64,000 bases of DNA from Escherichia coli. GTDB lineage: Bacteria; Pseudomonadota; Gammaproteobacteria; Enterobacterales; Enterobacteriaceae. A program made the translations under genes and the position numbers. Location of the stretch: assembly GCF_051903065.1 (NCBI RefSeq), contig NZ_CP178438.1; one strand, 5' to 3'. The first letter of the stretch is position 1, and each line of letters opens with the position of its first letter. The notes beneath the pieces are model-generated. The model was not told where the DNA came from, made no database searches, and was given only the letters and a program-made list of their open reading frames with translations. Below, piece by piece: positions 33,729-57,118 of the stretch.

Positions 33729-35114
33729 ATGGCAGATAACAAACCAGAGCTACAGCGTGGGCTGGAAGCTCGACATATCGAACTCATCGCCCTGGGGGGC
33801 ACCATTGGCGTCGGCCTGTTTATGGGGGCCGCCAGTACCCTGAAATGGGCCGGGCCATCCGTATTGTTGGCCTATATCATCGCCGGGCTGTTCGTCTTTT
33901 TCATCATGCGTTCAATGGGCGAAATGTTGTTCCTCGAACCGGTTACCGGTTCGTTCGCCGTTTATGCGCATCGTTATATGAGCCCGTTCTTTGGCTATCT
34001 CACCGCCTGGTCTTACTGGTTTATGTGGATGGCGGTGGGGATCTCTGAAATCACCGCCATTGGCGTTTATGTCCAGTTCTGGTTCCCGGAGATGGCGCAG
34101 TGGATACCCGCATTGATCGCAGTGGCGCTGGTGGCGTTGGCGAATCTGGCGGCGGTGCGGTTGTACGGCGAAATCGAGTTCTGGTTCGCGATGATCAAAG
34201 TCACCACGATTATCGTGATGATTGTCATTGGCCTGGGCGTGATTTTCTTTGGCTTTGGCAATGGCGGGCAGTCGATTGGTTTTAGCAATCTCACAGAGCA
34301 TGGCGGTTTCTTTGCGGGTGGCTGGAAAGGGTTCCTGACCGCGCTGTGTATTGTGGTGGCGTCCTACCAGGGCGTGGAGCTGATTGGCATTACTGCCGGT
34401 GAAGCGAAGAATCCGCAGGTGACGCTGCGCAGTGCCGTAGGCAAGGTGCTGTGGCGGATCCTGATTTTCTACGTAGGCGCGATTTTCGTTATCGTCACCA
34501 TCTTCCCGTGGAATGAAATAGGCAGCAACGGCAGCCCGTTCGTACTGACTTTTGCCAAAATCGGTATTACCGCAGCGGCGGGCATTATCAACTTTGTGGT
34601 GCTGACGGCTGCGCTCTCTGGCTGTAACAGCGGCATGTACAGTTGCGGACGTATGCTCTATGCACTGGCGAAAAACCGTCAGTTACCGGCGGCGATGGCG
34701 AAAGTTTCCCGTCACGGCGTACCAGTTGCGGGTGTGGCAGTATCTATTGCTATTCTGCTAATTGGCTCATGCCTGAACTACATCATTCCCAATCCGCAGC
34801 GTGTGTTTGTCTACGTCTACAGTGCCAGCGTGCTTCCGGGGATGGTGCCATGGTTTGTGATATTGATAAGCCAGCTGCGTTTTCGGCGTGCACATAAAGC
34901 GGCGATTGCCAGCCATCCGTTCCGCTCAATCCTGTTCCCGTGGGCCAACTACGTAACAATGGCATTCCTGATTTGCGTTTTGATCGGCATGTACTTTAAT
35001 GAAGATACGCGTATGTCGCTGTTTGTTGGCATCATCTTTATGCTGGCGGTGACGGCGATTTATAAAGTTTTTGGCCTTAATCGCCACGGGAAAGCGCATA
35101 AACTGGAGGAATAA
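33729..35114 (+). CDS. yifK: APC-family amino acid permease
   Basis: 461-aa ORF with 12 predicted TM helices. Confidence 0.9.
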
Positions 35115-35216
35115 GCAGCAAAACGCACAAACCGTAACCAAACGCGCAATTTATTTAAAAAGGGACTAGACAGAGGGGGGGGAAGTCCGTATTATCCACC
35201 CCCGCAACGGCGCTAA

Positions 35217-47040: not shown

Positions 47041-47466
47041 TTAACCTACATACCTCGTCCCATTCCAACGCAAGATTGTATCCTCGTCGCATAAAAGGTT
47101 GTGTACGCCATGATTCTTTTCTTTCATCAGGCTGATTTTGCTACAAAAATAATCAATGTTAATTTTGGAGTTATCCGGGGTCATAATACTGCAAGCCATA
47201 GTTGGTGCGTCACTCGCGGTATATCCACAATCGTCTTTCCCGCAGGCAGCGGGAGGCGTGGAGGGTGAATACGTGCAGTTAAGCGTTTCGGAAATGCCAT
47301 CATCGTTAATGTCGAGGGGACGGCTAATCTCATCGCTGTCAGTGCCTAATGTGGTTGCATCCAGGATGACGTTTGGTTTTTGTATCTCGCTTGTGGCCGC
47401 GTAATTGAAGCTGCTTGCGGCCATTATGCCTAGAGCTATGCCAATCCGTAAGGCTATTTTTTGCAT
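47041..47466 (-). CDS. small secreted Cys-rich protein of unknown function
   Basis: 141-aa ORF with N-terminal signal peptide (MQKIALRIGIALGIMAASSFNYA) and 6 Cys; its start overlaps the stop of the upstream gene by 13 nt; AT-rich. Confidence 0.6.
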   Translation of the reverse strand: MQKIALRIGIALGIMAASSFNYAATSEIQKPNVILDATTLGTDSDEISRPLDINDDGISETLNCTYSPSTPPAACGKDDCGYTASDAPTMACSIMTPDNSKINIDYFCSKISLMKEKNHGVHNLLCDEDTILRWNGTRYVG

Positions 47467-48749
47467 CCTGGTTCCTCTGTAATAATCATAATGTCTCTGT
47501 TTTGAACTTCACGCACATTCTCTTCTCTGACACGAGTTTTCGCCGGACAGGGGGATGGCGTAATCCTGACCTCTGTATCGGTCCAGGTATAAACATTGCG
47601 ATCGTCATAAGCGAAGCGATCGTTTTTAATTAGCGGGCCGTTAGTTGGAATAATTTGCACGCTCTTTGACCGTAATTGGCGGATAAAGTAAACATGTTGT
47701 TTGCCGCCATTAAATGAGTTATCAATGACCAGGTCTGGCGAATCCAGCGGAATTATTTCAAGCTGGTCTTCACCAAAAGTCGATAATTTTGTTACATACA
47801 GACGATCTTTATACTGCGCAATATTGCCAGTAATCAGATGAAATTGTTCAGGTTCAATATCCGGTAGGTCTATCCACTTGCTCCACTGACGGTCGGGCGA
47901 GAGCTGTTTACGCCAGCGAACGCGACTTTCCCCCACTTCAAAAGAGACGTCATCATCTACGGGTATCGCTTTGCCAGATAATTGCCCAAAGGGATAACGA
48001 TGCAGACCATTGTTGTCGCGAAAAACCAGCAGTGAATGAGGTATCCAGCGAATTATCTCAAATGAGTCTGCATTCGCCGTAAGGTGAACGCCATTTAAAT
48101 AAATATTCTGCCCACTGCGGATAAGCAGATCATTGGAATACAAATTTCTGTTTACACTCATAAGACGTGGATTAATACCCCACCATCTTTTTTCTAATAC
48201 AGTAACATTACTGCTGCTCCCCTGACGTCGACCGGACAAATAGAGATTTTTACTATCCACCAGCGTGGTAGAGTTACCTTCGATAGCTTTTAGTGTCGCC
48301 AGATCAACACGTGACGCGCCGCTATTACTTTCGGTGCGCTGTCCATCAAAATAGAGGCTATATTTATCGACCGCGAAGCGGCCCATAGCCTGAAAGCTGG
48401 CAATATCGACAGTGGGTATTCCCGGTGGATTGCTAACGATTTTGCCACGCCAGAGAATAACGCGGCCGTCTGTCACCCAGTGGTATTCCTCATTTTTTAT
48501 GCTTATTTCATCGGTGGGTATATAGCCTTCCACTAACTCCCGCTCCCCGGATATATTTGTCACAAGGCGCAAATCGGCTCTGTTCATCTTCGGAAATTGG
48601 GCAATGATTTTCTCATCCTCCCCATAACCTTTACCGTAAGACATGACACCGTGATCATTGTAATAGTCGAACCCTATGGCCTGTACAGCAGGTGTCAGAA
48701 ATGTGTGCCCCAACAGGATGAGTGCAACTGTGATTATTTGACCATTCAT
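47454..48749 (-). CDS. secreted DKNYY-like repeat protein, paralog B
   Basis: 431-aa ORF, signal peptide (MNGQIITVALILLGHTFLTPAVQA); recurring motifs (DKYSLYFDG, NIYLNGVHLTANADSFEI, DDRNVYTW); clearly homologous to the ORF at 48746-50224. Confidence 0.7.
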   Translation of the reverse strand: MNGQIITVALILLGHTFLTPAVQAIGFDYYNDHGVMSYGKGYGEDEKIIAQFPKMNRADLRLVTNISGERELVEGYIPTDEISIKNEEYHWVTDGRVILWRGKIVSNPPGIPTVDIASFQAMGRFAVDKYSLYFDGQRTESNSGASRVDLATLKAIEGNSTTLVDSKNLYLSGRRQGSSSNVTVLEKRWWGINPRLMSVNRNLYSNDLLIRSGQNIYLNGVHLTANADSFEIIRWIPHSLLVFRDNNGLHRYPFGQLSGKAIPVDDDVSFEVGESRVRWRKQLSPDRQWSKWIDLPDIEPEQFHLITGNIAQYKDRLYVTKLSTFGEDQLEIIPLDSPDLVIDNSFNGGKQHVYFIRQLRSKSVQIIPTNGPLIKNDRFAYDDRNVYTWTDTEVRITPSPCPAKTRVREENVREVQNRDIMIITEEPGCKK

Positions 48750-50224
48750 TTTGTCGCCTCATTGCGCGGGGCAGGAATAAATTCGCCGTCATCGGTAATT
48801 TTTCCGTCCAGATATCCCGTTTTGTAATTTACCCCGTAGCCATATCCCGAATGTTGTTCCTTCCAGATTAAGCGAACTTGTTTCGGATCAGCGGTGCGGT
48901 ATCGCCAGAGCTGCGCGCCATCAAAGCTGTAAACGTAGCGGTTATCGCGGGCATACCATCTGCGCAAAAAGGGATGGTCATTAAGATGGGCTTCGCGTTC
49001 ATCCGGAGAACGGTTATCCAGTAAGATCAGCGGTCCGTCAGATTCAAACACGTGTAAACCGGAATGGTATGGCCACCCTTCGGCACGCGTAAGTAAATAG
49101 CCGTGGCGTTTCCCGGCGTTGAAACGTTTGTTGATAATAAGATTGGGATCATCAAGTTTCACGATCTCCAGCTTGCGGTCACCAGACTCTGTTTCGATGA
49201 TGGTATAAAGCGAGTCCTGATACTGTGCGACAGCATCACTGATGGGGTGAAACTGTTCCGGATCGAGTCCGGGTAATTCTTCCTGTTTACAGTCAGGCCC
49301 CTGACGCCAGAACACTTTCTTTTCCAGCAGAGAAAAATCCAGACAGTGCTTTGTTAAATCTTCATCCCACGCCAGATTTTCCTTGTCGAGGACTTTACGC
49401 TGCAGCCCGTTTTTATCACGCCAGGTCAAGAGTGAGCCGGGCATCCAGCGCACGACGGAAAAAGTGTCCGGGTCGGCATCAAGCTGTTCGCCGTTGATCA
49501 GGATTTTGGTTCTTGTACGAGCCAGGGTATCCCAGGGGCCAAATGGCATAGCCACACAGGGATTAAACGCGGTAGAAAACTTTCCTCTTTGATCCCATGA
49601 CTTTTGTGCCAGCACACGGAAACTCTCGGGGTCAGCGAGGCGATGCCCATCGACATATAAGAAATTAGCGTCACGTAATATCAGCCCCAGTAAGTCAGGA
49701 TCCCAGGGAGGCCGGAATTCCACCTGATGCAGTGTTTTGATATCTACGCTATTTCCCCCGCCATTGTCATCGGTGCGCTTGCCTTCGAAATAGAGACTGT
49801 GTTTATCTGCGGCAAAATCACCCCATGCCTTGAACGAGGCGACATCGACGGGAGGTTTGTCTGGCGGGTTTTGCACAACTTCACCCGCGTAGAGGATATT
49901 GCGGCCATCGCTATGCCAGGAGTAATGAGGATACCAGGCTTGTGCGCCTTCATAGAGGTAGTCGGTTGTTAGATCAGTCAGAGGTGGTTCTTTATTCCAT
50001 TCATCTTGTGTTGTTGGGTCTATTAATAAATTGGGTAAACGGCGCAAACTCTTGTAATTCACGTCAGGTAGAGAAAGATTTGTTTCTTTATAAGGGCGCA
50101 GGTACACCACGCCTTTTCCCTGTTTCTGGTAAATATTATGTTCAGGTGCATCAAGCCGACATCCCCATGCCGACGATAAGAACAATGAACAAGCCAACAA
50201 ACAAACCACATTGCGATAGTGCAT
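48746..50224 (-). CDS. secreted DKNYY-like repeat protein, paralog A
   Basis: ORF 48746-50254 (GTG) trimmed to ATG at 50224 (MHYRNVVCLLACSLFLSSAWG signal peptide); motifs DKHSLYFEG, FLYVDGHRLADPESF, ILINGEQLDADPDTF, RDNRYVYSFDG; 4-nt ATGA overlap with paralog B. Confidence 0.7.
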   Translation of the reverse strand: MHYRNVVCLLACSLFLSSAWGCRLDAPEHNIYQKQGKGVVYLRPYKETNLSLPDVNYKSLRRLPNLLIDPTTQDEWNKEPPLTDLTTDYLYEGAQAWYPHYSWHSDGRNILYAGEVVQNPPDKPPVDVASFKAWGDFAADKHSLYFEGKRTDDNGGGNSVDIKTLHQVEFRPPWDPDLLGLILRDANFLYVDGHRLADPESFRVLAQKSWDQRGKFSTAFNPCVAMPFGPWDTLARTRTKILINGEQLDADPDTFSVVRWMPGSLLTWRDKNGLQRKVLDKENLAWDEDLTKHCLDFSLLEKKVFWRQGPDCKQEELPGLDPEQFHPISDAVAQYQDSLYTIIETESGDRKLEIVKLDDPNLIINKRFNAGKRHGYLLTRAEGWPYHSGLHVFESDGPLILLDNRSPDEREAHLNDHPFLRRWYARDNRYVYSFDGAQLWRYRTADPKQVRLIWKEQHSGYGYGVNYKTGYLDGKITDDGEFIPAPRNEATK

Positions 50225-50333
50225 AAAGCCATCCTGGCGCGAGGTGTTGATCACGATACTGCCAGCAGAACATAAATCCTCACACGTAAGCGTAATTCTC
50301 GCGGCAAATCGTCACTTTTCAGAATCCATAAAG
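50163..50333. repeat. direct repeat copy 1 (~171 bp): 5' end and upstream region of paralog A
   Basis: near-identical to 51245-51415 by eye (ccccatgccgacgataa...cacttttcaga..cataaag). Confidence 0.85.
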
Positions 50334-50590
50334 GTCATTGCTATTTTCTGATAGTTGCTGGGGTAAACGTGATGTTTTCATTCACGATATAAATACGAGG
50401 TACTGCGCCATGGTGTGACTGATCACGTTAAAATGTGCCGGGTTGACGCCGGGAAGGGGTTCAACATGCGACTCTGCCCCCGTTGCCTACTTTATTGTCT
50501 TTCGCGAGTTGTACCCATGTTCCACCACTGGTATCTAACATTCTCCACATTATTACGCTTTCTGCCGAATGTGATTTTTATAGAAATCTA

Positions 50591-51145
50591 TCAATTCATT
50601 TTCCCTGTGCCATAAATTTTATCCTTCACATCCTGCCGAACGCGGGTCTTGTACCCCCCGTTGTGAAGATCTTCATACGGAGAAAAAGAATCTTTACTCC
50701 ACCCCAGCAGCACTTTATCGCCAGGCATAAAATGCACATGCAGAAAATCTTCTCCCCATTCTCTTTTGGGGAGAGGTAACGTCATATTCCGTTTCTCCAG
50801 ACGCATTCCAGCATTATACTGTGTACGAGTAGTACTTAATGTCCAGATAACCTCTGCAGTATCCCCACTGACATCACCACAACAGGTTGTTGAACCTCCA
50901 CCATTTGCAAAAGCATTCGCGCCCGCCACGCCGTTAACACTGAATCCCAGTATCGGACGGTCAATTTCACTGTGGATTTCCAGAATCACTCCACCTCTTG
51001 GACCTCCCCATACTGCCTGCCCTATATTCCACAACACGACCAGTACTGGAACGACAATTAACGTCCGCCATACCCAGCGCCCCCAGCGGGCATAACCGCG
51101 CGTAAGCTTTTGGTCAAATTTTTCCAGTTGGGTAAATAGCCCCAT
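50591..51145 (-). CDS. membrane-anchored protein of unknown function
   Basis: 184-aa ORF, one N-terminal TM helix (WRTLIVVPVLVVLWNIGQAVW) then a Gly-rich soluble domain with a CC pair (GGGSTTCCGDVSGD); lies downstream of repeat copy 2. Confidence 0.6.
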   Translation of the reverse strand: MGLFTQLEKFDQKLTRGYARWGRWVWRTLIVVPVLVVLWNIGQAVWGGPRGGVILEIHSEIDRPILGFSVNGVAGANAFANGGGSTTCCGDVSGDTAEVIWTLSTTRTQYNAGMRLEKRNMTLPLPKREWGEDFLHVHFMPGDKVLLGWSKDSFSPYEDLHNGGYKTRVRQDVKDKIYGTGKMN

Positions 51146-51237: not shown

Positions 51238-51306
51238 TTAAAAGCCCCATGCCGACGATAAAAACAACGAACAAGCCAACAAACAAACCACATTGCGATA
51301 GTGCAT
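51238..51306 (-). pseudogene. 22-codon remnant of a DKNYY-paralog signal peptide
   Basis: minus-strand ATG at 51306 encodes MHYRNVVCLLACSLFLSSAWGF then TAA; first 21 residues identical to the paralog A N-terminus. Confidence 0.7.
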
Positions 51307-51415
51307 AAAGCCATCCTGGCGCGAGGTGTTGATCACGAAACTGCCAGCAGAACATAAATCCTCACGAGTAAGCGTTATACTCGCAGCATTTCCTCACTTT
51401 TCAGACTTCATAAAG
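51245..51415. repeat. direct repeat copy 2 (~171 bp)
   Basis: same orientation as copy 1, roughly 90 percent identical by eye. Confidence 0.85.
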
Positions 51416-51494
51416 AGTCGCTAAACGCTTGCTTTTACGCCTTCTCCTGCGATGATAGAAAGCAGAAAGCGATGAACTTTACAGGCAATCCATA

Positions 51495-53263: not shown

Positions 53264-54156
53264 CCGATTTACACACCGATGTAGAACGCTACCTACGTTA
53301 TCTGAGCGTGGAGCGTCAGCTTAGCCCGATAACCCTACTTAACTACCAGCGTCAGCTTGAGGCGATCATCAATTTTGCCAGCGAAAACGGCCTGCAAAGC
53401 TGGCAACAATGCGATGCAGCGATGGTACGCAATTTTGCTGTACGCAGTCGCCGTAAAGGGCTGGGAGCAGCAAGCCTCGCGTTACGGCTTTCTGCGCTAC
53501 GTAGCTTTTTTGACTGGCTGGTCAGCCAGAACGAACTCAAAGCTAACCCGGCGAAAGGTGTTTCGGCACCGAAAGCGCCGCGTCATCTGCCGAAAAACAT
53601 CGACGTCGACGATATGAATCGGCTGCTGGATATTGATATCAACGATCCCCTCGCTGTACGCGACCGTGCAATGCTGGAAGTGATGTACGGCGCGGGTCTG
53701 CGTCTTTCCGAGCTGGTGGGGCTGGATATCAAACACCTCGACCTGGAGTCTGGTGAAGTGTGGGTAATGGGGAAAGGCAGCAAAGAGCGCCGCCTGCCGA
53801 TTGGTCGCAACGCTGTGGCGTGGATTGAGCACTGGCTTGATTTGCGCGACCTGTTTGGTAGCGAAGACGACGCGCTTTTTCTGTCGAAACTGGGCAAGCG
53901 TATCTCCGCGCGTAATGTGCAGAAACGCTTTGCCGAATGGGGCATAAAACAAGGGCTGAATAATCACGTTCACCCGCATAAATTACGTCACTCGTTCGCT
54001 ACGCATATGCTGGAGTCGAGCGGCGATCTTCGTGGTGTGCAGGAGCTGCTGGGTCATGCCAACCTCTCCACCACGCAAATCTATACTCATCTTGATTTTC
54101 AACACCTTGCCTCGGTGTACGATGCGGCGCATCCACGCGCCAAACGGGGGAAATAA
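53260..54156 (+). CDS. xerC: tyrosine site-specific recombinase XerC
   Basis: 298-aa ORF with the conserved R...HxxR...Y catalytic region ([12 protein letters not shown]...TQIYTH). Confidence 0.93.
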
Positions 54157-54872
54157 TGCGTTTTTACCGGCCTTTGGGGCGCATCTCGGCGCTCACCTTT
54201 GACCTGGATGATACCCTTTACGATAACCGTCCGGTGATTTTGCGCACCGAGCGAGAGGCGCTTACCTTTGTGCAAAATTATCATCCGGCGCTGCGCAGCT
54301 TCCAGAATGAAGATCTGCAACGCCTGCGCCAGGCGGTACGGGAAGCGGAACCCGAGATTTATCACGACGTGACGCGTTGGCGTTTTCGTTCGATTGAACA
54401 AGCGATGCTCGACGCCGGGCTGAGTGCCGAAGAAGCCAGTGCAGGCGCACACGCAGCAATGATTAACTTTGCCAAATGGCGCAGCCGAATCGACGTCCCG
54501 CAGCAAACTCACGACACCTTAAAACAGCTGGCGAAGAAATGGCCGCTGGTGGCGATCACCAACGGTAACGCCCAGCCGGAACTGTTTGGTTTGGGGGATT
54601 ATTTTGAGTTTGTGCTGCGCGCTGGCCCGCACGGGCGCTCAAAACCGTTCAGCGATATGTACTTTTTGGCTGCGGAAAAACTCAACGTGCCGATCGGCGA
54701 GATCTTACATGTTGGGGACGATCTCACCACTGACGTGGGTGGGGCAATTCGCAGCGGAATGCAGGCCTGTTGGATCAGACCGGAAAATGGCGATCTGATG
54801 CAAACCTGGGACAGCCGTTTACTGCCGCATCTGGAAATTTCCCGGTTGGCATCTCTGACCTCGCTGATATAA
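54156..54872 (+). CDS. yigB: HAD-family phosphatase YigB
   Basis: 238-aa ORF with HAD motif I ([10 protein letters not shown]). Confidence 0.9.
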
Positions 54873-54891
54873 TCAGCAAATCTGTATATAT

Positions 54892-54907
54892 ACCCAGCTT
54901 TTTGGCG
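54892..54907. promoter_or_regulatory. LexA (SOS) box upstream of uvrD
   Basis: CTGTATATATACCCAG matches the CTGT-N8-ACAG class, about 50 bp upstream of the uvrD start. Confidence 0.75.
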
Positions 54908-54955
54908 GAGGGCGTTGCGCTTCTCCGCCCAACCTATTTTTACGCGGCGGTGCCA

Positions 54956-57118
54956 ATGGACGTTTCTTACCTGCTCGACAGCCTTAATGACAAACAGCGC
55001 GAAGCGGTGGCCGCGCCACGCAGCAACCTTCTGGTGCTGGCGGGCGCGGGCAGTGGTAAGACGCGCGTACTGGTGCATCGTATCGCCTGGCTGATGAGCG
55101 TGGAAAACTGCTCGCCATACTCGATTATGGCGGTGACGTTTACCAACAAAGCGGCGGCGGAGATGCGTCATCGTATCGGGCAACTGATGGGCACCAGCCA
55201 GGGCGGCATGTGGGTCGGCACCTTCCACGGGCTGGCGCACCGCCTGCTGCGTGCGCACCATATGGACGCCAATCTGCCGCAGGATTTCCAGATCCTAGAC
55301 AGTGAAGACCAGCTACGCCTGCTTAAGCGTCTGATCAAAGCCATGAACCTCGACGAGAAGCAGTGGCCGCCGCGCCAGGCAATGTGGTACATCAACAGCC
55401 AGAAAGATGAAGGCCTGCGTCCGCATCATATTCAAAGCTACGGTAATCCGGTGGAGCAGACCTGGCAGAAGGTGTATCAGGCGTATCAGGAAGCGTGTGA
55501 CCGCGCGGGCCTGGTGGACTTCGCCGAGCTGCTGCTGCGCGCTCACGAGTTGTGGCTTAACAAGCCGCATATCCTGCAACACTACCGCGAACGTTTTACC
55601 AATATCCTGGTGGACGAATTCCAGGATACCAACAACATTCAGTACGCGTGGATCCGCCTGCTGGCGGGCGACACCGGCAAAGTGATGATCGTCGGTGATG
55701 ACGACCAGTCAATCTACGGCTGGCGCGGGGCGCAGGTGGAGAATATTCAGCGTTTCCTCAATGATTTCCCCGGTGCCGAAACTATCCGTCTGGAGCAGAA
55801 CTATCGTTCTACCAGTAACATTCTGAGCGCCGCGAACGCCCTGATTGAAAACAACAACGGGCGTCTGGGTAAAAAACTGTGGACCGATGGCGCGGACGGT
55901 GAGCCTATTTCCCTCTATTGCGCTTTTAACGAACTCGATGAAGCGCGTTTTGTGGTTAACCGCATCAAAACCTGGCAGGACAACGGTGGGGCGCTCGCCG
56001 AGTGCGCCATTCTCTACCGCAGCAACGCCCAGTCGCGTGTACTGGAAGAAGCACTGTTGCAGGCAAGTATGCCGTACCGTATTTACGGCGGGATGCGATT
56101 CTTCGAACGCCAGGAAATCAAAGATGCGCTCTCGTATCTGCGCCTGATTGCCAACCGCAACGACGACGCGGCCTTTGAGCGTGTGGTGAATACGCCAACG
56201 CGGGGTATTGGTGACCGGACGCTGGACGTGGTACGTCAGACATCGCGCGATCGCCAGTTAACACTCTGGCAGGCATGTCGTGAGCTGTTGCAGGAAAAAG
56301 CGCTCGCCGGGCGAGCTGCCAGCGCCTTGCAGCGATTTATGGAATTAATCGACGCCTTAACGCAAGAAACTGCCGATATGCCGCTGCATGTACAGACTGA
56401 CCGGGTAATTAAAGACTCCGGCCTGCGCACCATGTACGAGCAGGAGAAGGGCGAAAAAGGCCAGACGCGTATCGAAAACTTAGAGGAACTGGTGACGGCA
56501 ACGCGCCAGTTCAGCTACAACGAAGAAGATGAAGATTTAATGCCGCTGCAGGCGTTCCTCTCCCATGCGGCACTGGAAGCGGGCGAGGGGCAGGCGGATA
56601 CCTGGCAGGACGCGGTGCAGTTGATGACGCTACACTCGGCGAAAGGGCTGGAGTTCCCGCAGGTGTTTATCGTCGGTATGGAAGAGGGCATGTTCCCAAG
56701 CCAGATGTCGCTGGATGAAGGCGGTCGTCTGGAAGAAGAACGCCGTCTGGCCTACGTTGGCGTAACCCGTGCGATGCAGAAACTGACGCTGACCTACGCG
56801 GAAACTCGCCGTCTGTATGGCAAAGAGGTTTACCATCGCCCGTCGCGCTTTATCGGCGAGCTGCCGGAAGAGTGTGTGGAAGAGGTGCGCCTGCGCGCCA
56901 CGGTAAGCCGCCCGGTCAGCCATCAGCGTATGGGTACGCCGATGGTCGAGAACGACAGCGGCTACAAGCTCGGCCAGCGTGTACGCCACGCTAAGTTTGG
57001 TGAAGGCACTATCGTCAATATGGAAGGCAGCGGCGAGCATAGCCGTTTGCAGGTGGCATTCCAGGGCCAGGGTATTAAATGGCTGGTGGCGGCTTACGCC
57101 CGGCTGGAGACGGTATAA
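54956..57118 (+). CDS. uvrD: DNA helicase II
   Basis: ORF 54770-57118 trimmed to [38 protein letters not shown] (720 aa). Confidence 0.93.
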   Translation: MDVSYLLDSLNDKQREAVAAPRSNLLVLAGAGSGKTRVLVHRIAWLMSVENCSPYSIMAVTFTNKAAAEMRHRIGQLMGTSQGGMWVGTFHGLAHRLLRAHHMDANLPQDFQILDSEDQLRLLKRLIKAMNLDEKQWPPRQAMWYINSQKDEGLRPHHIQSYGNPVEQTWQKVYQAYQEACDRAGLVDFAELLLRAHELWLNKPHILQHYRERFTNILVDEFQDTNNIQYAWIRLLAGDTGKVMIVGDDDQSIYGWRGAQVENIQRFLNDFPGAETIRLEQNYRSTSNILSAANALIENNNGRLGKKLWTDGADGEPISLYCAFNELDEARFVVNRIKTWQDNGGALAECAILYRSNAQSRVLEEALLQASMPYRIYGGMRFFERQEIKDALSYLRLIANRNDDAAFERVVNTPTRGIGDRTLDVVRQTSRDRQLTLWQACRELLQEKALAGRAASALQRFMELIDALTQETADMPLHVQTDRVIKDSGLRTMYEQEKGEKGQTRIENLEELVTATRQFSYNEEDEDLMPLQAFLSHAALEAGEGQADTWQDAVQLMTLHSAKGLEFPQVFIVGMEEGMFPSQMSLDEGGRLEEERRLAYVGVTRAMQKLTLTYAETRRLYGKEVYHRPSRFIGELPEECVEEVRLRATVSRPVSHQRMGTPMVENDSGYKLGQRVRHAKFGEGTIVNMEGSGEHSRLQVAFQGQGIKWLVAAYARLETV

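Follow-up and report, generated by a model that had tools for sequence, protein, structure and literature searches.

The SOS box of uvrD has been a textbook member of the LexA regulon since 1983. The primary reports on the SOS control of the gene are said to be those of Easton & Kushner, Siegel, and Pang & Walker, all from 1983, the first of which reportedly deals with LexA binding at uvrD and names attenuation in its title as a second control.

Gammaproteobacterial LexA operators are recognised by a 16-bp core, CTGT-N8-ACAG, which lies within a 20-bp consensus, TACTG(TA)5CAGTA, and whose CTG-N10-CAG inverted repeat is invariant (PMC11228462 among other sources). The LexA motif of uvrD has been printed as AAATCTGTATATATACCCAGCTTTT, upstream of the UV-induced gene (PMC3009722). 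The gene also appears among the 'classic SOS genes', with a heterology index of 8.5 and a 1.7-2.1-fold induction (PMC11228462), this index being below the cut-off of 14 in the same table (PMC11228462, quoting Courcelle et al. 2001). Its promoter has been classed as an 'early' SOS promoter with a peak time that is independent of dose (PMC5999292), and increases have been reported both for uvrD RNA (log2 of about 2.2) and for the UvrD protein (about 1.25) (PMC11002266). Salmonella uvrD has one LexA box and is induced 13.9-fold, and the heterogeneity of its basal expression is independent of LexA (PMC8072944), such that LexA is not the sole determinant of uvrD expression. In Vibrio cholerae, mitomycin C raises uvrD expression 9.1-fold, and the gene has been termed a ubiquitously conserved SOS gene (PMC5963079).

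The element described below is the same as the SOS box of E. coli K-12 uvrD, with an identical sequence in the same yigB/uvrD context, but in another E. coli strain. It shares with Salmonella and V. cholerae uvrD the presence of one LexA-like site upstream of a gene whose expression is damage-inducible.

The yigB-uvrD locus and its promoter

The window, by which is meant the whole 64-kb stretch of E. coli DNA that was analysed, is 99.97% identical to E. coli NZ_CP083585.1, one 12-nt indel aside. A 601-nt stretch around the uvrD box is matched in 5425 of 5426 complete E. coli genomes, where the records annotate it as the end of yigB followed by the start of uvrD, within the gene order dapF-yigA-xerC-yigB-uvrD. 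The features of the locus are as follows.

54156-54872, + strand: yigB coding sequence (ORF list; RefSeq annotation of the identical E. coli locus)
54846-54851, + strand: predicted -35 hexamer TTGGCA of the uvrD promoter (promoter scan)
54865-54873, + strand: predicted extended -10 element TGaTATAAT of the uvrD promoter (promoter scan, with the TG before the hexamer flagged)
54880-54899, + strand: 20-mer ATCTGTATATATACCCAGCT, assigned as the LexA operator or SOS box (first rank in the weight matrix scan, conservation, motif in PMC3009722)
54882-54897, + strand: 16-nt LexA core CTGTATATATACCCAG (exact string match)
54904-54929, + strand: leader hairpin GGCGGAGGGCG-TTG-CGCTTCTCCGCC, candidate attenuator stem (RNA fold)
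54937-54941, + strand: T5 run, possible termination or pause tract (sequence; 7 nt after the hairpin)
54956-57118, + strand: uvrD coding sequence, DNA helicase II (ORF list; RefSeq record 4668082-4670244)

A consensus scan returned one sigma-70-type promoter, TTGGCA-16 nt-TATAAT, with its -10 hexamer at 54868-54873, an upstream TG and 11 of 12 consensus matches. This predicted uvrD promoter is found within the last codons of yigB. In an alignment of 11 Enterobacterales the TTGG of the -35 element is kept and the TG-TATAAT is invariant.

The overlap between yigB and the uvrD promoter is an observation in its own right. The yigB stop codon TAA (54870-54872) is embedded in the -10 hexamer TATAAT, and the -35 hexamer TTGGCA doubles as the yigB codons for Leu-Ala. 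The bases of 54846-54873 hence serve the promoter of one gene and the coding or stop signal of the other at once, and they are conserved across the 11 Enterobacterales.

Elsewhere in the window, at about 47041-51145, the annotation of the matched strain places four additional genes between cyaY and lptM, of which one encodes a DUF3304 protein and three encode hypothetical proteins. A 175-nt direct repeat with 92% identity (50163-50336 and 51245-51419) is located within and just past the lptM-proximal end of this block. The block, which is presumably absent from E. coli K-12, may represent a small accessory island.

The LexA operator of uvrD

The LexA-type 16-mer CTGTATATATACCCAG has a single exact occurrence in the window, on the + strand at 54882-54897. 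It is housed in the 83-nt spacer between yigB, which ends at 54872, and uvrD, which starts at 54956, and it precedes the uvrD ATG by 58 nt. The ORF list and the RefSeq annotation thus bear out the intergenic placement given in the preliminary description, which had proposed an SOS box at 54892-54907. Those positions are 10 nt too high: the sequence there is ACCCAGCTTTTTGGCG, which contains just the final 6 nt of the box. The site had also been said to fit CTGT-N8-ACAG. Whilst the CTG-N10-CAG repeat is indeed intact, the actual site reads CTGT-N8-CCAG and so carries one mismatch to the strict core, a C in place of the A before CAG. A C at this position is frequent in verified boxes, including those of recN, dinI, ruvA, cho, uvrB and dinB (PMC3009722). 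Between the arms is an AT-rich, (TA)n-like spacer, TATATATACC, and the printed motif AAATCTGTATATATACCCAGCTTTT is equal to window positions 54878-54902.

A gap of 8 nt separates the predicted -10 hexamer from the CTG of the box, and the box therefore covers the region in which transcription is expected to begin. With respect to this predicted start, the 20-mer at 54880-54899 would span about +1 to +20.

Taken with its position at the promoter, its conservation and its first rank in a matrix scan, the 20-mer ATCTGTATATATACCCAGCT (54880-54899) is almost certainly the LexA operator of the E. coli uvrD promoter, with LexA control and induction themselves taken from the literature. The idea of an SOS box ahead of a damage-inducible helicase II is upheld accordingly, as SOS induction of uvrD has been reported repeatedly (PMC5999292, PMC11228462, PMC8072944, PMC5963079, PMC11002266) and the sequence itself is in print (PMC3009722).

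Score of the operator against background

With one mismatch allowed, CTGT-N8-ACAG is matched 26 times in the window against an expected 18. This loose 16-mer pattern does not discriminate, and a 20-nt LexA position weight matrix (PWM) was therefore scanned over both strands of the window, about 128,000 positions, with uvrD excluded from the training set. The first matrix was made from 26 E. coli boxes and the second from the 17 non-uvrD boxes as printed in Table 4 of PMC3009722. The printed boxes agreed with their counterparts in the first set, and the second matrix gave the same result. The uvrD 20-mer ranks first in both cases, with 17.26 bits for the 26-box matrix (runner-up 13.2 bits) and 16.29 bits for the 17-box matrix (runner-up 12.98 bits).

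The background was simulated as 64-kb first-order Markov windows, of which the window maximum was compared with the uvrD score. The latter was reached in 6 of 300 simulated windows with the 26-box matrix and in 5 of 400 with the 17-box matrix, that is in 1-2%. When verified boxes were scored in a leave-one-out procedure, the uvrD box outscored 8 of 26 with the larger matrix and 3 of 17 with the smaller. The scan, which had been put forward as a check on the proposed box, thus puts the site above every other in the window and inside the range of verified boxes. The uvrD box is a genuine but moderate-to-weak LexA box in the lower part of the verified range, and its 16.3-17.3 bits agree with the heterology index of 8.5 quoted in PMC11228462.

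Four secondary matches, at 6341, 35101, 40098 and 48395, were rejected as LexA sites; none exceeds 13.2 bits, and they have no intact CTG or CAG arm and/or no AT-rich spacer. The contexts of those at 6341, 35101 and 48395 come from an approximate mapping to the annotated strain, in which upstream positions are uncertain by 12 nt owing to the 12-nt indel. The match at 6341-6360, CACTGGGAGTAAATAAAGTA, is in the ilvE-ilvD spacer, does not have the CAG arm and sits over a Shine-Dalgarno-like GGGAG, and that at 35101-35120, AACTGGAGGAATAAGCAGCA, is found at the 3' end of thrP/yifK and precedes the argX-hisR-leuT-proM tRNA cluster. With 12-13 bits, these two are regarded as chance matches. The match at 48395 is inside a hypothetical gene.

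Comparison with strong LexA operators

The strong operators of umuDC, sulA and recN, of the TACTGTATATAAAAACAGTA type, are bound by the same repressor and resemble the uvrD box in their CTG-N10-CAG palindrome, in their (TA)n-rich spacer and in being located at or beside the promoter. Unlike these, the uvrD box has AT rather than TA before CTG, CT after CAG and CC before CAG. Its score of 16-17 bits compares with 25-28 bits for the strong boxes, a difference that accords with a weaker repression, with early timing and with a small fold-induction.

Conservation within E. coli and across the Gammaproteobacteria

The box and its immediate flanks, 40 nt in all with the box at the centre (54870-54909), show 100% identity in 5394 of 5423 complete E. 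coli genomes; the surrounding 601 nt reach at least 99% identity in only 3392 of 5425 records. For the comparison between species, one genome per species was searched with a degenerate pattern for the conserved UvrD N-terminal peptide LNDKQREAVAAP, which yielded 120 uvrD loci from 43 gammaproteobacterial genera, 118 of which extended far enough upstream to be scored. Over the 330 nt ahead of uvrD, the top PWM score is at least 14 bits in 72 of these 118 loci, 10-14 bits in 32 and less than 10 bits in 14. A LexA-like site of at least 10 bits is thereby found upstream of uvrD in 104 of the 118. In the other 959,730 nt of these loci, only 3 sites score at least 14 bits, equivalent to about 0.001 expected per 330 nt. 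LexA-like sites are present at the equivalent position in the Enterobacterales, Vibrionales, Pasteurellales and Alteromonadales.

The alignment of the 11 Enterobacterales contains only three conserved non-coding islands, namely the -35 element, the TG-TATAAT and the CTGTA...CCAG box. The distance from the box to the -10 element is 1-13 nt in the 10 species where it was located by script, with the eleventh aligned likewise. Across genera the spacer of the box varies (TATATATACC, TATAAATAAC, TAAAAATTTC, GTTAAATATC) but the CTG and CAG arms persist, which is the pattern expected of an operator and not of a fixed promoter element.

Other gammaproteobacterial uvrD boxes differ from that of E. coli in sequence and in their distance to the ATG. 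In Pseudoalteromonas, for instance, the sites precede the conserved codons by about 175 nt and have scores of 19.5-25.4 bits. Many Vibrio sites are TTATGTATAAATAACCAGTA, where the left arm is ATGT and not the CTGT that is invariant elsewhere; their position is conserved and they score 12-13 bits, with examples (L006, L018, L056, L078, L115) in which the site is about 58 nt before the conserved codons. These low scores contrast with the roughly 9-fold induction by mitomycin C that has been reported for V. cholerae uvrD.

The scan of the 330 nt ahead of uvrD gave no site of at least 10 bits for seven of eight Marinomonas loci (L021, L037, L055, L067, L070, L095, L102), for Shewanella (L048, L076, L119), Thalassotalea (L107, L108) and Xenorhabdus ehlersii (L034), or for one Actinobacillus metagenome-assembled genome. 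In Marinomonas, Shewanella, Thalassotalea and X. ehlersii, uvrD may be out of direct LexA control, or the operator may be further upstream or before an operon.

Two broader readings are possible though rather doubtful, and neither would alter the identity of the element. One is that the suboptimal bases of the uvrD operator are held by purifying selection for weak repression and early induction; the other is that uvrD has been withdrawn from direct LexA control in Marinomonas (seven of eight loci), Shewanella, Thalassotalea and X. ehlersii. In favour of such selection, the T ahead of CTG persists throughout the Enterobacterales, a CC ahead of CAG is common only to the Escherichia/Citrobacter/Phytobacter group, and all but 29 of the 5423 E. 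coli genomes are identical over the 40 nt around the box.

The uvrD leader hairpin

Between the uvrD box and the ATG, the leader is predicted to fold into a GC-rich hairpin of about -20 kcal/mol (54904-54929). E. albertii and Citrobacter retain the hairpin, which in C. youngae carries a compensatory G->T / C->A pair; in Phytobacter the same place is taken by a different hairpin. Conservation of the hairpin sequence is limited to Escherichia and Citrobacter, and in other Enterobacterales it has been replaced or is missing. A terminator scan did not call the hairpin as an intrinsic terminator, the T run being too far from the stem. Moreover, shuffled sequences fold as well as the 81-nt uvrD leader does (z = 0.38), and an Rfam search of 54700-55100 matched no family.

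As a candidate, the hairpin is probably the 'attenuation' element that the title of the 1983 report by Easton & Kushner is said to name. Together with the T run it would probably form a second, LexA-independent layer of control that attenuates read-through.

Alternative explanations

The simplest alternative is that the site is an AT-rich palindrome that resembles a LexA box by chance, with no regulatory role, and that the damage induction of uvrD arises elsewhere. The loose one-mismatch 16-mer is, after all, common in the window (26 against 18 expected), and about 1-2% of random 64-kb windows hold a site that scores as high. A chance match would not be expected, however, to adjoin the -10 element of a DNA-repair gene promoter or to keep the 40 nt around it identical in 5394 of 5423 E. 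coli genomes. Nor would one expect LexA-like sites in the corresponding position at 104 of 118 loci from distant genera when the background is 3 per 960 kb, and the literature lists this very site as the uvrD LexA box (PMC11228462, PMC3009722). The probability of a fortuitous resemblance is accordingly negligible.

The two further alternatives accept a function for the region but assign it differently. The TATATATA core could be kept mainly as a promoter element, either as an easily melted start or as an overlapping -10-like hexamer, with LexA secondary or unimportant. The overlap of the box with the predicted start site, the small induction in E. coli (1.7-2.1-fold, PMC11228462) and the LexA-independent basal expression in Salmonella (PMC8072944) are all compatible with this. 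Yet it is the AT-rich spacer that varies across genera and the LexA-contacted CTG...CAG arms that are conserved, and a distance to the -10 element that ranges over 1-13 nt fits an operator better; a primarily promoter-related role is thus very unlikely. Control of the damage induction chiefly by the leader hairpin as an attenuator, with little contribution from the LexA box, draws on the stability of the hairpin (about -20 kcal/mol) between box and ATG, on the compensatory change in Citrobacter and on the attenuation reportedly named as a second control in the 1983 title. The hairpin sequence is, however, restricted to Escherichia and Citrobacter whereas the box persists in other Enterobacterales. 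In addition, the T run is 7 nt from the stem, no terminator is called, there is no Rfam match and nothing ties the hairpin to a damage signal, so that this explanation is improbable in the extreme. The reading of the site as the LexA operator of uvrD is the one that is followed here.

Proposed mechanism of uvrD regulation

In the undamaged cell, a LexA dimer would occupy both half-sites of the operator (CTGT...CCAG). Bound over the start region, the repressor would keep RNA polymerase from forming a productive complex, most likely by steric hindrance. Upon DNA damage, RecA filaments on single-stranded DNA would promote the self-cleavage of LexA, the operator would be vacated and uvrD transcription would rise.

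A moderate-to-weak operator on a strong promoter would allow leaky repression and a high basal level of helicase II, and induction in E. coli would be modest (about 2-5-fold) and early. We infer that the high basal level and the small, early induction both arise because the weak operator is combined with the strong promoter. Outside the SOS response, mismatch repair and excision repair both require this high basal level.

Significance

The element is already known: it is the uvrD SOS box, real, widely conserved and ordinary, and its meaning is limited mostly to correct annotation. A genuine operator was recognisable from the sequence alone, despite a 10-nt slip in its coordinates. The mildly new part is the quantitative comparative picture of the LexA control of uvrD. 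This control appears to have been lost in a few marine genera and is conserved in most of the sampled Enterobacterales, Vibrionales, Pasteurellales and Alteromonadales, with an operator that in the enteric bacteria is always moderate.
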